Virus record (IMG/VR): IMGVR_UViG_3300009499_000008
Location: 15,675-79,674 of that record
DNA: 64,000 bases
Reading direction: 5' to 3' (one strand)
From: a virus
In this document: positions 53,380 through 61,723 of the stretch, piece after piece
How the letters are laid out: the number at the start of each line of letters is the position of its first letter
Position numbering within the stretch: position 1 is the stretch's first letter
The notes under the pieces: model-generated
What the model was told of the DNA's origin: nothing
Seen by the model: only the letters and a program-made list of their open reading frames with translations
Database searches by the model: none
Position numbers and translations under genes: made by a program

Positions 53380-55956
53380 CTACTGAACCTCGACAACTTG
53401 AAAATCCAACATTCGTTCAAAAAAGTGTGCATCCTTGACAGGAACCCAAGATTCGCGTTTACCACGACCATCAAATCTATAACGATTTCCCAGAGGAGTC
53501 TTATAAGTCCGTGCTCCCATGTTATCCCCTGTGTATTTGATTAATACTTTCGTTGGTTTTGGCACATCCTTTTTCTCTGTTTTCTTATGGCCCAATAAAG
53601 GATCTCCAGGCAGTATTACTAATCCAGATTCTTTAGGAGGCAGCGCCTCTAAAGTAGCATATCTCTGTCTGAACTCCTTCATCAATTCTGGAGCGTTGTC
53701 GAGACACTCTTCTCTCCTCTTTCCACTCTCATAATGATAAGAAAACAATGACTCAGGAACTCTTATTCCATGATAACCTTTATGAGCTAATTGTACAGTG
53801 TAATCCCAATCTTCCCAGACAGGAATATCCTCATTGAATCCACCAACTTCGTCAAAAGCTTCCCTTGGATGAAGAAAAGTGATGACGAATAAAGCCTGCT
53901 TTTTTAGCCGCTCAAAGTCCCACGCCTCCGCCTTATGAATTTTTCCTTCTGGTAACGATACCCAGTCTGTATAGATAATAGATTTTGGTCTGACGGCAGC
54001 AACCTTTAAAGTCTGCCGCAAAAAGTGCTTGTCTAATTCATCATCTGCGTCTAAGAAGAGTAGGCACTTCCCTCGTGCATGTTGCACACCCAAATTTCGT
54101 GCAGCACTGACGTTACCGTACTTTCTTTTTCTCCGCCAAATTATAAATGGGTAACGCTCAACATAAGGTATTATACCATACTTTTTGATTTTCCCCAAAG
54201 TTGTATCGTCTACTACAATCAGTTCCCATCTTGAATCAGTCTGTGCCTTCACCGATTCGATGGCCTTCACCAAAACTTCTTCGTGTCCATCACCGACAGG
54301 AATGATAATGGAAACCAACGGCTGGTCGTAACTGAACACAGGGTGAGAGTAGTTTTTTGGAGTTGCAACGCTGGCAAACGGCTGTGGCCCACCATTAGCA
54401 GCGGAAATATAATTCAACCAGTTAGGTTCTTTCTCTTTTGTTTTGTTAGAGACACTATCTTTATGAATACGATAGATCATCGTCGGTGCTTGTGAGGCGT
54501 GTATGGAAGTGAAACCACATAGCCCGATATTAGTCCACAATTCGGCATCTTCCCCAAGTGTGAAATGAGTTTTGTACCCTCCAGCCCTGAAAAAAGCGTC
54601 TCGACGAAGCAGGTTACAAGAGGGTACTTGATTTCGTCTCTGTAACTGCGCGGCGAAATCGAAGCCGTTGGGCCAACTTCCTCTGACAGATCCACGGGGG
54701 GTGTGAAGCTCAAGACTGCCAAAGGAGATCCCTATAGAACGATCCTCTAATAAGGGAGGGAGCAGTGTTTCCAAGAACTTCTCTTTCAAAGTATCGTCAG
54801 CATCTAAAAAGCACAAGAACTCGCCCTTGGCCTCCATCGCACCCCTATTCCGTGCGTTCGCTACTCCACGGTTGGACTGTGCTAGGACTTTAAATTTTGG
54901 GTCGTGATCGACGGCCTCGTTAATTTTTATTAAGGAATCATCTTTAGAACCGTCATCGATTATCAGACATTCCCATCCAGTAAAAGATTGTGCTTTTACG
55001 GAATTGATAGCGTCCACGACGTAATCGGCATAATTGTAACAAGGGATTATTATTGTAATCTGTGGGCCTTTATGCTCTTTTAGTGCTGACTCATAGACTT
55101 CGACGTATTTGGGGATAATGTCTTTCCAGTCATGTTTTAAGGCTTCTTGTCGAGCGGCTTTGGACAATCTGTCAAAGTTTTCGATACAGTAGCGTAGTCC
55201 TGTCACAGTGTCAGTATAGTCATCTGGCTTGGCTAGATAACCCGTGACTTTGTGTTTGACCAATTCGACTGCATTCCCCCAAGCCCAGGCCAAGACGGGC
55301 ATTCCTGCTGCGAAGGCTTCGAGAATCCCAATCCCAAACGTCTCTTTTGTCGATCCAAAGTAGATACCATTCTTGTAGAGAATTTCCTTCATAGTCTCAT
55401 AGGGTTGAAGACCCAGCACGTCTAAATTTTTGGCTGGGGAACCGAAAGTGGACAGAAACTTCACATCAGGGCATAGGGTAGCCAGTTTCTCTACGGGCGC
55501 GGGAGTACAGACAGCATCCACTCGATTTTTATTGAACACAACAGTCATTGATTTATTTGTGGAAGGTTCTTCCCACTCATCAAGATTAATTCCATGTGGC
55601 ACGATGATTGGGCAGAATCCCATATCTCTGATGAACATCTCTCCGACCCACGGGGACGGGACTGTAACCTTTTTTACTTTTCGAACTGCCTCGATTATTC
55701 TTTTGTTAGATTTCGACATCCACCTTGGAAGAGAAAACTCGCCCGTGGGATAGAGGCCATGATTGTGGAGAACGTGAGGTATTGTATCAGCGAAGGGCAA
55801 AACATGCGCGGCCAAGATTTCCGCTTCTAGAGGACCCTCAACGATTTCTACAGATTTTGGTAAGTGACGCCTTTGCTCAATTACGACGCGTTCGACCCCT
55901 GTGATGGACTTTTGTGAGGGATCAATAGTTGGTGTAGGACTAAGGAAGAGTTTCAT
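53380..55956 (-). CDS. Trifunctional glycosyltransferase GT4+GT2+GT2 with C-terminal shared domain
   Basis: ETFGIGILEAFAAGMP; IIIPCYNY..DDGS..LDADD; IIIPV..DD..LDADD..WEDWD; YTGDNMGARTYKTPLGNRYRFDG. Confidence 0.88.
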   Translation of the reverse strand: MKLFLSPTPTIDPSQKSITGVERVVIEQRRHLPKSVEIVEGPLEAEILAAHVLPFADTIPHVLHNHGLYPTGEFSLPRWMSKSNKRIIEAVRKVKKVTVPSPWVGEMFIRDMGFCPIIVPHGINLDEWEEPSTNKSMTVVFNKNRVDAVCTPAPVEKLATLCPDVKFLSTFGSPAKNLDVLGLQPYETMKEILYKNGIYFGSTKETFGIGILEAFAAGMPVLAWAWGNAVELVKHKVTGYLAKPDDYTDTVTGLRYCIENFDRLSKAARQEALKHDWKDIIPKYVEVYESALKEHKGPQITIIIPCYNYADYVVDAINSVKAQSFTGWECLIIDDGSKDDSLIKINEAVDHDPKFKVLAQSNRGVANARNRGAMEAKGEFLCFLDADDTLKEKFLETLLPPLLEDRSIGISFGSLELHTPRGSVRGSWPNGFDFAAQLQRRNQVPSCNLLRRDAFFRAGGYKTHFTLGEDAELWTNIGLCGFTSIHASQAPTMIYRIHKDSVSNKTKEKEPNWLNYISAANGGPQPFASVATPKNYSHPVFSYDQPLVSIIIPVGDGHEEVLVKAIESVKAQTDSRWELIVVDDTTLGKIKKYGIIPYVERYPFIIWRRKRKYGNVSAARNLGVQHARGKCLLFLDADDELDKHFLRQTLKVAAVRPKSIIYTDWVSLPEGKIHKAEAWDFERLKKQALFVITFLHPREAFDEVGGFNEDIPVWEDWDYTVQLAHKGYHGIRVPESLFSYHYESGKRREECLDNAPELMKEFRQRYATLEALPPKESGLVILPGDPLLGHKKTEKKDVPKPTKVLIKYTGDNMGARTYKTPLGNRYRFDGRGKRESWVPVKDAHFFERMLDFQVVEVQ

Positions 55957-56515
55957 CTTTCTCCTTTAACATAGAATGTTTATAAACCCATGAGATCCAC
56001 ATTAAGAATTCATCTTGTGTCATAGTATTTTTCGCTTTATTACACGTACTGCAGCAAGGCACGACATTATCGATTTCATAGCCGCGCTCATTATCTACTC
56101 GATCTAATCCATTGAAAGAGCATAGCCCATTATATACTGAACTTGATCGTAAAGAGGGTGCTGCACCACAATAATAACATGGTTGGGATGAAAGTTCCTC
56201 AACCTGATCGGCTGTTAGACTCCAAACGTAATCTCTTTGTTTTGCTGAATGCTTCAATATAGTGATTAAGCGATTAAGCGTCGCAACTTTATTGGACAAT
56301 TTACGTGTCTTGTTATATGCTTTTGTTCTCTCATTCCTTAAGCAACCACAACTTTTAGTGGAGCCGTCTCGAAGGCTACTTCCGCGTATAATAACTTCAT
56401 TACCACAAGTGCAATGGCATAACCACATAGCTGCTTTATGCTTATACCCTACTTGCTGTAATATAGTCAGCCTTCCATATTGATTGTCAATCTCATTAAT
56501 AACTGACCGTCCCAA
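55940..56515 (-). CDS. Free-standing HNH endonuclease
   Basis: YGRLT, WLCHCTCG, TKSCGC, CYYCG, GLDRVDN..GY...NVVPCC..CN. Confidence 0.88.
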   Translation of the reverse strand: MGRSVINEIDNQYGRLTILQQVGYKHKAAMWLCHCTCGNEVIIRGSSLRDGSTKSCGCLRNERTKAYNKTRKLSNKVATLNRLITILKHSAKQRDYVWSLTADQVEELSSQPCYYCGAAPSLRSSSVYNGLCSFNGLDRVDNERGYEIDNVVPCCSTCNKAKNTMTQDEFLMWISWVYKHSMLKEKDETLP

Positions 56516-56530
56516 TATAACCTCCTTCTC

Positions 56531-60453: not shown

Positions 60454-61028
60454 CGCCTCATCTTTTGTGTGAACAGTGTCTGATCTCTTTTTGACCATTC
60501 AGCGACACGTCCACCGACACGATGTTGATGTTTTAAGTATACTTCACGTGCCCAAACACAGTGCCAACCCGCCTTACGTGCCTGTATACAATAAAGATAA
60601 TCACTTCCATAATGTATGAAATCCTCATCTAAAAGACCGATGGTATTAATCAACTCCCGACGAATCAATACACACCAAAAAGGTAATTGATCTACTACTT
60701 GAATTCCGTGCATACCTGGTTTTCCAGCACTGGTCGGTGGCGTCGCACTCTTCCCCGATGGTCCAACGATTCCATACTTAAGATTACTGTAGAGTACTTG
60801 ATGCAAAGTAGCCAACCATCCAGATGGGAATCCACTCACGTCATCATTTAGAAGACAAATATCCCCATTTTCTGTTTGTCGTATTCCATCATTCACCGTT
60901 TTAGTAAAACCACGTCTTGGTCCAGCAGAGATAATCAAACGTGCTTTCATCCCCGCCGCAAGTAATGCCAGTTTTCCTGTAGCCTCACCACGAGCGGAGT
61001 CTAAGGTGGGAATTATAATAGCTATCAT
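60450..61028 (-). CDS. Glycosyltransferase family 2
   Basis: GF...VN.G, LLNDD, IGLLDE.F..Y.SD. Confidence 0.85.
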   Translation of the reverse strand: MIAIIIPTLDSARGEATGKLALLAAGMKARLIISAGPRRGFTKTVNDGIRQTENGDICLLNDDVSGFPSGWLATLHQVLYSNLKYGIVGPSGKSATPPTSAGKPGMHGIQVVDQLPFWCVLIRRELINTIGLLDEDFIHYGSDYLYCIQARKAGWHCVWAREVYLKHQHRVGGRVAEWSKRDQTLFTQKMRR

Positions 61029-61723
61029 CGACCTGCAATATCTACCGCCGTGTTCTGACGTGATTTACCAATGTGATCGAATGCTCGCACAATCCCTGTT
61101 TCGAGGGCGACGAGCTTGGGTCCTTTAATAATGTCCTTTATTCTATGCGCGAACGCACTCTCTGTTTCCCCCAAAGACTTTCCCATCGGATAATGACTAT
61201 AAGCTTTATGAAATTTTACATGCTTTAAATGTGGTCGATTGCTATAAACGTTCAATCCTCGACTGTCTTTGAGAATTTCTAGATACTGCAAGACTCCCAA
61301 ACGAGTATCGATCTCCTCAATCGTCAAGTTGAGCCTGTGTCCAGCTAATCCGTCATATCGTACTAAGCCTATATTCGCTTTTGAGCCGAGAAGCGCAACA
61401 CCTTTATTTATGTCAAGAGGATAAAGAGCGACATAATCATCCTCACAGAGGAAAATATATTGCTCACCTATTTTCTTCATACATTTATTTACATTGGCTC
61501 CCCAACCCAGCCTTTTGGTGATAGTTGCTCTAAAACCCAAATTAGCAAAATCTCGCTGGATGTCCAGAATATAATTACCTGGGCTACCATCATCAGCGAG
61601 ATACCACACGAATTTCCCTTTGTATTGCAAGTGCTTAGTCAATGCCACGATGACACGACGAATCTCACTCGGTCGGTCATAAGTCACAACCATCACGGCA
61701 ACATCAGGCCAAGTGATACTCAT
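61025..61723 (-). CDS. Glycosyltransferase family 2
   Basis: VVTYDR, ADDGS, G.GAN.N, CEDD, HIG. Confidence 0.85.
   Translation of the reverse strand: MSITWPDVAVMVVTYDRPSEIRRVIVALTKHLQYKGKFVWYLADDGSPGNYILDIQRDFANLGFRATITKRLGWGANVNKCMKKIGEQYIFLCEDDYVALYPLDINKGVALLGSKANIGLVRYDGLAGHRLNLTIEEIDTRLGVLQYLEILKDSRGLNVYSNRPHLKHVKFHKAYSHYPMGKSLGETESAFAHRIKDIIKGPKLVALETGIVRAFDHIGKSRQNTAVDIAGR

Follow-up and report, generated by a model that had tools for sequence, protein, structure and literature searches.

A glycosyltransferase island beside the capsid gene of a subsurface phage may glycosylate virion proteins

To our knowledge, glycosylation of phage particles by phage-encoded enzymes has been shown only for mycobacteriophages, in which it alters antibody recognition. 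In the mycobacteriophages, capsid and tail tube subunits carry the glycans at their C-termini (Freeman 2023, as summarized in PMC12619734), and two putative glycosyltransferase (GT) genes are described near the 3′ end of the genome of a Che8 relative (PMC11256854). For Che8, Corndog and Myrna, soluble phage GTs are proposed to glycosylate capsid and tail proteins in the cytoplasm, and the coat is regarded as a surface shield. A system of similar design is found in the eukaryotic giant virus PBCV-1 (PMC9614988). Its A111/114R protein is a soluble three-domain GT of 860 residues, which is conserved in all chloroviruses and makes the core part of the glycan on the capsid. The end of this glycan is added by the variable A064R protein, which possesses two GT domains and a methyltransferase domain, and antigenic classes result. 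Here we describe a cluster of GT genes, cluster A, in a stretch of viral DNA of 64,000 nucleotides (hereafter, the window), which comprises bases 15675-79674 of the IMG/VR record IMGVR_UViG_3300009499_000008. Cluster A occupies 53380-61747 on the minus strand of the window, directly after the major capsid gene. The original prediction, which was made from the letters of this stretch, had taken the cluster for a large, late-expressed pathway that builds a complex, methylated glycan on the virion and does not convert the serotype of the host. We give roughly even odds (about 0.5) to the reading that cluster A serves to glycosylate virion proteins in the cytoplasm, the core of the glycan being conserved and its outer part variable.

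Cluster A encodes seven GT proteins with 10 GT domains. Seven of these domains score above the Pfam cut-offs, two were assigned by structural look-alikes and one by a weak match (Table 1). The predicted seven GT genes with about ten domains and the accompanying gene list were confirmed item by item. The list had missed one gene, which encodes a free-standing HNH endonuclease, and the predicted methyltransferase gene is present with a weak Pfam match below the cut-off. The structural look-alikes of the GT-D-like protein include an SP_1767-type GT2+GT-D cluster. Because the Atlas record of this protein begins at residue 33, the true start of its gene is probably the ATG at 58524, which overlaps the preceding stop codon. 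As predicted, most of the genes appear to be translationally coupled: their junctions overlap or abut (-4, -1, -4, -1, -1, +15, -17, 0, -1 and 0), and a nominal junction of -49 probably reflects a mis-called start. Sites that match promoter or terminator consensus sequences were not more frequent in cluster A than in shuffled sequences, and no terminator-like site was found on the minus strand within the cluster.

Table 1. Positions of the features discussed, the basis of each assignment and the identity to the counterpart in the nearest relative.
Feature	Position in window	Strand	Basis or remark	Nearest relative
Terminase				87%
Portal candidate				88%
Major capsid protein, HK97 fold, 483 residues	61774-63225	-	start is the ATG used by relatives; longest ORF from 63252	93%
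Capsid C-terminal tail	61774-61830	-	about 20 residues after the invariant GG	
GT2, first gene after capsid	61025-61747	-	Pfam PF00535, 29.8 bits against a cut-off of 23.3	77%
Central cassette, five genes	57823-61028	-		replaced
GT2-like, weak	60450-61028	-	Glyco_tranf_2_3 E 4.6e-4 (below cut-off); phrog_22332 glycosyltransferase E 1.3e-4	
TOD1/MUCI70 GT (formerly DUF616)	59752-60498	-	Pfam E 1.8e-23, above cut-off	
GT-A fold	59063-59752	-	no Pfam match; Atlas model TM 0.91 to GT2 clusters	
Methyltransferase-like, weak	58524-59066	-	Methyltransf_24 E 3.8e-4, below cut-off	
GT-D-like	57823-58524	-	Pfam weak; Atlas TM 0.90 to GT-D-like viral clusters	
Double GT2 protein	56531-57823	-	Pfam PF00535 in two stretches, E 1.7e-23	75%
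HNH endonuclease, free-standing, homing-type	55940-56515	-	phrog_1035 E 4e-25; phrog_374 E 3e-19	
Core enzyme GT4+GT2+GT2 with C-terminal module, 858 residues	53380-55956	-	Pfam E 8e-52	80%
C-terminal module of core enzyme, about 55 residues	53383-53571	-	blastp to the two small ORFs, E 5e-16 and 5e-13	
Free module copy 1, 77 residues, starts MGCGC	53146-53379	-	blastp to core enzyme end	66% (small ORFs)
Free module copy 2, 74 residues, starts MGCRC	52922-53146	-	blastp to core enzyme end	66% (small ORFs)
Conserved 396-residue protein, always after core enzyme/module	51731-52921	-	homologs directly after core GT in 26 loci	82%
Conserved 525-residue protein, Ycf48/BNR-type beta-propeller in C-terminal half	50211-51788	-	PDB profile E 1.5e-14	88%
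Tape measure				57%
Dit				77%
Cluster B, second sugar cluster	27047-35868	-	Pfam	
B12 radical SAM enzyme of cluster B	30292-31635	-		
Family A DNA polymerase with N-terminal UDG domain	14940-17273	+		
Anaerobic ribonucleotide reductase	18068-20140	+		

The setting of cluster A is a late structural operon. The window belongs to a single viral contig of 79,674 bp from a subsurface metagenome. Because the ends of this contig carry a 123-bp repeat, we regard it as the complete, circularly permuted or terminally redundant genome of a 79.5-kb phage; IMG/VR classifies it as possessing direct terminal repeats and as 100% complete. The minus strand contains one long late operon, in which the genes for the small and large terminase subunits, a portal candidate of 444 residues, a scaffold or protease candidate of about 462 residues and the capsid protein precede cluster A. 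Two small open reading frames (ORFs), genes for proteins of 396, 525 and 202 residues, and the tape measure and Dit genes follow the cluster. The operon continues with the genes for a Tal-like protein and a SpoIID-domain protein, more tail genes and a second sugar cluster, cluster B. Thus, the part of the original prediction that concerns a late pathway holds for the place of the cluster inside this tightly packed operon, and its late timing is suggested by gene order only. The position directly after the capsid gene was also confirmed. The capsid protein sequence gave no match in Pfam, PHROG or PDB. Therefore, its identity was judged from an AlphaFold model (37 homologs used; pLDDT 74.7): in a Foldseek comparison, phage HK97-fold capsid proteins were at the top of both the PDB and the BFVD lists, and the capsid call is therefore right. 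About 983 homologs of the capsid protein were obtained, and none of them is named.

Searches of viral contigs, first with the capsid protein sequence and afterwards with an alignment of it, yielded 79 loci with capsid identities of 33-94%. Forty-four unique loci possess at least 9 kb of DNA downstream of the capsid gene. In 36 of these 44 loci, the GT4+GT2+GT2 enzyme (hereafter, the core enzyme) is encoded downstream of the capsid gene; locus L006, which contains only the start of the enzyme gene, was counted. Synteny across related phages had been suggested as a check, and the linkage of the core enzyme to the capsid gene through a deep clade supports the predicted reading. Wherever a locus extends far enough, homologs of the 396-residue and 525-residue proteins are encoded directly after the core enzyme. 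In three relatives with genomes that are 93-100% complete, the two GT2 domains of the core enzyme are the sole GT2 domains in the genome. In an alignment of 37 homologs (29-80% identity), the EX7E motif of the GT4 domain and the DAD(D) motifs of both GT2 domains are at least 90% conserved, and this conservation suggests that all three domains are probably active. The family of the core enzyme is large: it contains at least 932 protein clusters at E<=1e-30, all of metagenomic origin and on contigs of at most 113 kb. About 8 of 120 homologs (P0374, P0378, P0391 and P0400 among them; 1150-1210 residues) gained a methyltransferase domain. It should be mentioned that two diverged capsid/core-enzyme blocks, L030 and L035, lie about 75 kb apart on one IMG/VR contig of 143 kb (3300031566_000001), in which two related phages were probably assembled into a chimera or concatenated.

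The core enzyme invites comparison with the PBCV-1 system. In both cases, soluble multi-domain GTs are encoded by the virus, a three-domain enzyme is conserved, and variable outer enzymes and methylation are present; moreover, some homologs of the core enzyme also gain a methyltransferase domain. However, the PBCV-1 glycans are N-linked, and the genes of this virus are dispersed and show early expression. Because descriptions and not sequences were compared, the resemblance concerns design and does not demonstrate descent. The comparison with Che8-type phages, in which the enzymes were likewise compared by description, gives a different contrast. In a Che8 relative, the two putative GT genes are located outside the head operon. 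In contrast, here the GT genes are inside it, and the system comprises 10 GT domains, a second cluster, a three-domain core enzyme with a module of about 55 residues, and a replaceable cassette. Phage-encoded particle glycosylation as such is already known from mycobacteriophages. The clade-wide three-domain core enzyme and the module, which occurs in fused or free form, are new.

Both small ORFs downstream of the core enzyme encode homologs of its C-terminal ~60 residues. In relatives, the module is fused only, free only (directly after a shorter core enzyme) or present in both forms. This pattern of fusion and fission implies, at the level of sequence, that the module and the core enzyme function jointly. 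Database searches gave the same association: in a set of 5.8 billion proteins, all 13 of the 13 long module proteins were GT4+GT2 enzymes or fragments thereof. In a set of 1.84 billion representatives, 788 members were obtained at E<=0.001, and 114 of the best 150 of these 788 were small free proteins; all 10 mid-length module proteins tested possess GT2 domains directly before the module. The AlphaFold model of free copy 1 (pLDDT 75.6) shows four to five strands and one helix. No significant match to this fold was obtained among PDB representatives (best Z 4.4), and YqbF (Z 4.2) and the C-domain of lambda gpFI (Z 3.7) were weak leads. The module has no Pfam family or fold match and is new. 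One protein, P0137, consists of the module in three tandem copies. In longer free module proteins, a C-terminal helical motif resembled HeH by eye; it had no Pfam match and was discarded.

Between the capsid gene and the core enzyme, the cluster is variable. Across the related loci, the distance from the capsid stop codon to the core enzyme ranges from 54 bp to 8.5 kb. In the four closest relatives (L002-L005), capsid identity is 93-94%, and tblastn showed that the first GT2 (77-79%), the double GT2 protein (70-75%) and the core enzyme (71-80%) are retained. The five genes of the central cassette have no homolog there: they are replaced in all three of the three closest relatives whose loci extend that far. 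The substitutes are a DegT aminotransferase, a GNAT acetyltransferase, methyltransferases, two Glyco_trans_1_2 proteins and, in L002, a DUF2334 protein. Therefore, cluster A is not the single fixed pathway that the original prediction implied; it is a conserved core with a replaceable cassette. In the nearest relative, the distal tail proteins after Dit also had no counterpart in the parts of the genome compared. The glycan island and the receptor-binding tail end are thus the two fast-changing parts of the late operon.

To describe more distant islands, we took a census of the interval from the capsid gene to the core enzyme in 30 loci, which contains 150 ORFs. Most of these encode enzymes for sugar nucleotides or glycans. 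They include 25 NAD-dependent epimerase/dehydratases, 18 Polysacc_synt_2 proteins, 19 GT2 proteins, about 20 methyltransferases, 7 DegT proteins, 5 GHMP kinases, 4 sulfotransferases and 7 HNH_3 endonucleases. The sulfotransferases and GHMP kinases (islands L009-L084) suggest that some members of the clade use sugars that are sulfated or phosphorylated, or activate unusual ones. The position of the island HNH endonuclease differs even between close relatives (L004:12222-12788; L002:20002-20763), and this enzyme may drive exchange of cassettes by homing-type recombination. The arrangement resembles bacterial O-antigen, capsule and flagellin loci, in which conserved flanks enclose a variable central cassette of GT, methyltransferase, aminotransferase, acyltransferase and 4,6-dehydratase genes. 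However, Wzx/Wzy, an ABC exporter and an initiating phosphoglycosyl transferase are absent here, and the locus is viral and lies beside a capsid gene. Serotype-like turnover of a cassette beside a nearly invariant capsid gene is a new observation.

Cluster B contains further sugar genes: a hexapeptide acyltransferase, a DegT aminotransferase, a DUF268 methyltransferase, GT2, an RGP/GT75-like protein, a B12 radical SAM enzyme, GT47 and another GT2. At least five of its matches are to GT families. Its radical SAM enzyme gave no match in 5 related records, and its proteins had no counterpart in the compared parts of the genome of the nearest relative, which carries two different GT2 genes at a distance of about 13 kb past the core enzyme. 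Cluster B probably supplies sugars for, and extends, either the glycan of cluster A or a second one. The scale of the system, with 10 GT domains and a second cluster that contains aminotransferase, acyltransferase, B12 radical SAM, GT47 and RGP-like proteins, is new. Since the RGP/GT75-like type is self-glycosylating and is accompanied by GT47, the genes might make a product other than a virion glycan, such as a soluble or storage oligosaccharide, a glycosylated host protein for takeover of the cell, or a glycolipid. We consider a product of this type quite unlikely, because it does not explain why the genes are linked to the capsid gene throughout the clade, or why cassettes turn over in the manner of serotypes between phages whose capsid proteins are 93% identical.

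The soluble nature of the enzymes bears directly on where a glycan could be made. A Kyte-Doolittle scan gave no membrane segment in any cluster A protein, in agreement with the predicted absence of a transmembrane anchor, and the same scan of the whole genome gave no multi-pass membrane ORF except for the tape measure protein. Hydrophobic segments are typical of tape measure proteins. A flippase- or polymerase-like protein was likewise not found in the complete genome, as had been predicted. These results, together with the Pfam and Atlas assignments, support the view that the cluster A enzymes are soluble, phage-encoded GTs. They also rule out serotype conversion of the Gtr type, because its defining membrane parts (the GtrA flippase, bactoprenol-linked GtrB and a multi-pass GT) are missing; the GtrB-like matches to phrog_841 are confined to a soluble GT2 domain. 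Streptococcal serine-rich repeat adhesins possess a soluble machinery in which GtfA/B is the GT4 primer and dGT1 and GalT1 carry GT-D and GT2 domains. Cluster A similarly contains a soluble GT4 primer together with GT2 and GT-D-like extenders, and GalT1 (5hea) is the second-best PDB sequence match of the core enzyme. The likeness lies in sequential, carrier-free protein glycosylation by soluble GT4, GT2 and GT-D enzymes. The difference is that here the genes are in a phage head operon, there is no accessory Sec system, and no serine-rich repeat acceptor was found among the late proteins, with no repeat tract in the end segments viewed.

Soluble enzymes, a core enzyme with its module, a fixed place on the capsid side, a swappable cassette and sugar-nucleotide genes together fit carrier-free cytoplasmic glycosylation that is tied to head assembly. 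We therefore propose the following scheme. Cluster A would be an island for glycosylation in the cytoplasm that forms part of the late structural operon. The three-domain enzyme would transfer sugars from nucleotide sugars straight to a structural protein of the phage, without a lipid carrier, and so build a conserved core glycan. The capsid protein would be the likeliest acceptor; alternatives would be the small module proteins and the neck or tail proteins whose genes follow. The module would dock the enzyme to its target or to a partner. The other seven GT domains and the methyltransferase would extend and cap the core glycan, five of these genes forming the replaceable cassette, and cluster B would supply an acylamino-deoxy sugar and additional transferases. 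The outcome would be a strain-specific glycan coat, which would vary between close relatives in the way that bacterial O-antigen or capsule types do. In this scheme, we infer the acceptor, the order of the steps, the late timing and the biological role.

Several observations weigh against cytoplasmic glycosylation of virion proteins. The capsid tail of the window phage is poor in potential acceptor residues, and no shared end tag marks its late proteins. The capsid tails across the clade do not correlate with the core enzyme. The PDB relatives of the core enzyme include wall teichoic acid transferases besides the protein O-glycosylation enzyme GalT1. The Cys/basic starts of a third of the free modules, with lipoprotein-like signals in two forms, could point to the membrane instead of the capsid. 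A helix-hairpin-helix domain, as a rule a DNA-binding element, is present in some homologs of the core enzyme. Finally, comparisons of the DNA, the capsid protein and the full-length core GT with a phage collection gave no cultured relative. All but the last of these points are considered below together with the other explanations on which they bear.

The acceptor was considered from the protein ends. In the capsid model, the C-terminal tail after the invariant GG is disordered. In most clade members (homologs in L006-L084), this tail is rich in Ser, Thr and Pro and contains a Y-S-[DE]-W motif. The tails of the window phage and its closest relatives are acidic and hydrophobic, and the window tail contains zero Ser and one Thr. 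Clade members without a detected core GT possess similar capsid tails. Among the late proteins of the window phage, Ser and Thr account for 7-16% of residues and no protein carries a Ser/Thr-rich tail. In the Che8 type the acceptors are C-terminal tails, and no such tag was seen in the window phage. It is conceivable that the glycan is built not on the capsid protein but on the 55-residue module proteins, as carrier or decoration glycoproteins, or on the products of the neck or tail genes that follow, which would be a variant of virion glycosylation. Without exception the module is part of the core enzyme or its gene is adjacent, the two free copies in the window possess Ser-containing N-terminal linkers, and the 396-residue and 525-residue proteins always follow the core enzyme and module; the poverty of the window capsid tail in Ser and Thr points in the same direction. 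However, several clade members (L022, L029 and others) possess the fused form only, so that the enzyme would have to glycosylate itself, and the weak fold leads mentioned above do not amount to a match with known decoration proteins. Thus, we regard glycosylation of these proteins in place of the capsid as unlikely.

A second explanation is that the enzymes modify the host envelope from the cytoplasmic side. In other words, the precursor of a wall polymer, such as teichoic acid or cell-wall polysaccharide, would be decorated at the inner membrane face and moved out by host exporters. The enzyme would be held at the membrane by the basic, Cys-rich N-terminus of the free module, and the decoration would keep progeny and competing phages from adsorbing to infected cells and debris. 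Host TarS and prophage-encoded TarP are soluble GTs that modify wall polymers before export; in this type, a GT-A catalytic domain with an oligomerisation domain at its C-terminus acts on a polymer bound to the membrane. TarS, TarP and TagF are among the PDB sequence matches of the core enzyme; the TarS and TarP matches are weak and confined to its first GT2 domain. An N-terminal Cys pair with basic residues (MGCGCRK, MACGGCGKK) is present in 39 of the 114 small free modules, and both window copies also begin with a Cys pair (further examples are P0138, P0142, P0153 and P0155), and in two forms, P0153 and L043:8557-9117, a lipoprotein-like signal that ends in LxAC precedes the same CGGC. This Cys motif may serve metal binding, acylation or membrane tethering. 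The absence of a phage flippase is compatible with host exporters. Therefore, the predicted exclusion of serotype conversion stands for the Gtr type, and wall modification of the TarS/TarP type stays compatible with a phage that encodes no flippase. Against such envelope modification, the cluster is fixed in the late head operon beside the capsid gene throughout a deep clade. Ten GT domains and at least five GT matches in cluster B far exceed known wall-decorating morons. The fused module has no N-terminal Cys motif and only two forms bear a signal. No integrase or other sign of lysogeny was found: a search for tyrosine integrases in the genome gave none (serine recombinases were outside this search), which, like the position of the genes inside the late operon, also speaks against lysogenic serotype conversion. 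On balance, modification of the host envelope seems rather improbable.

A third explanation is that the GTs glycosylate modified bases of the phage DNA before packaging. A C-terminal helix-hairpin-helix domain was gained by about 10 of 120 core-enzyme homologs (~8%; P0178, P0303, P0334, P0346 and others); the family matched is HHH_5, which P0193 also carries. One C5 DNA methylase was found among the 150 island ORFs. Phage GT-A and GT-B enzymes related to wall or lipopolysaccharide (LPS) transferases glycosylate 5-hydroxymethylcytosine, and some of their clusters lie near structural genes (10.1101/2023.12.21.572611). Cluster A shares these features, soluble GTs related to wall or LPS enzymes and proximity to structural genes, with the phage DNA glycosylation systems (T4 α- and β-GT, RB69 arabinosylation and the MT-5mYOX-GT clusters of Pyle et al.). 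However, the enzymes that would make the hydroxyl group are missing. The complete genome contains no ThyA homolog (PF00303), ThyX (PF02511) or Tet_JBP (PF12851). A ThyA homolog was also absent from 37 related records, of which 10 are at least 90% complete, and the positive control for this search worked; Tet_JBP was absent from the same 37 records in a search in which no control matched. The two phage methylases checked are of the N6/N4 type. Moreover, known DNA glycans are mono- to trisaccharides and require far fewer GTs than the 10 domains here, to which cluster B and the methylation, amination and acylation of sugars are added. Thus, DNA hypermodification is very unlikely to be the function of cluster A.

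If virion proteins are indeed glycosylated by this system, glycan coats would be common among environmental phages. These coats would be far more elaborate than those known, with at least 10 GT domains and with methylated, aminated and acylated sugars, which would also be sulfated in relatives, and they would evolve like bacterial serotypes. Their ecological role in stability, sticking to particles or mucus, or evasion of recognition by hosts or predators would become testable. The three-domain enzyme and the small module would also be a compact toolkit for carrier-free protein glycosylation, in which the module is a possible targeting tag. A wider and more tentative idea, which we hold to be possible but doubtful, is a modular "particle glycome". 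In this idea, the roughly one thousand clusters each of capsid protein and core enzyme would represent a widespread system with a module-tethered core writer, a hot spot seeded by HNH endonucleases would swap the cassettes, and phages with near-identical capsids would carry different glycan "serotypes".

The phage is probably virulent and of the siphovirus type. The plus strand carries replication genes, including those for a SNF2 helicase, an RNA ligase and two N6/N4 DNA methylases. Given the subsurface source, the anaerobic ribonucleotide reductase, the UDG-domain polymerase and the B12 radical SAM enzyme suggest that the host is anaerobic. We attempted to find the host from metagenome-assembled genomes. 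The capsid family occurs in such genomes of CPR bacteria, Chloroflexota, Gemmatimonadota and archaea. Because these phyla are unrelated and the occurrences are probably binning artefacts, we name no host.

Recoding of TAG was also considered, because both junctions around the small ORFs are in-frame TAGATG sequences. Read-through or recoding would join the core enzyme to the ORF at 53146-53379, and the ORF at 52922-53146 to the 396-residue gene. Both were rejected because TAG ends 13 of 39 late genes, often within TAGGAGG ribosome sites, and no tRNA gene was found in the genome. The 396-residue protein, whose gene the original prediction had placed among head-tail genes, gave no Pfam, PHROG or PDB profile match and is a neck or adaptor candidate by position. 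The position of the 525-residue protein makes it a candidate for the tail tube; in that role, its beta-propeller would be an unusual decoration.

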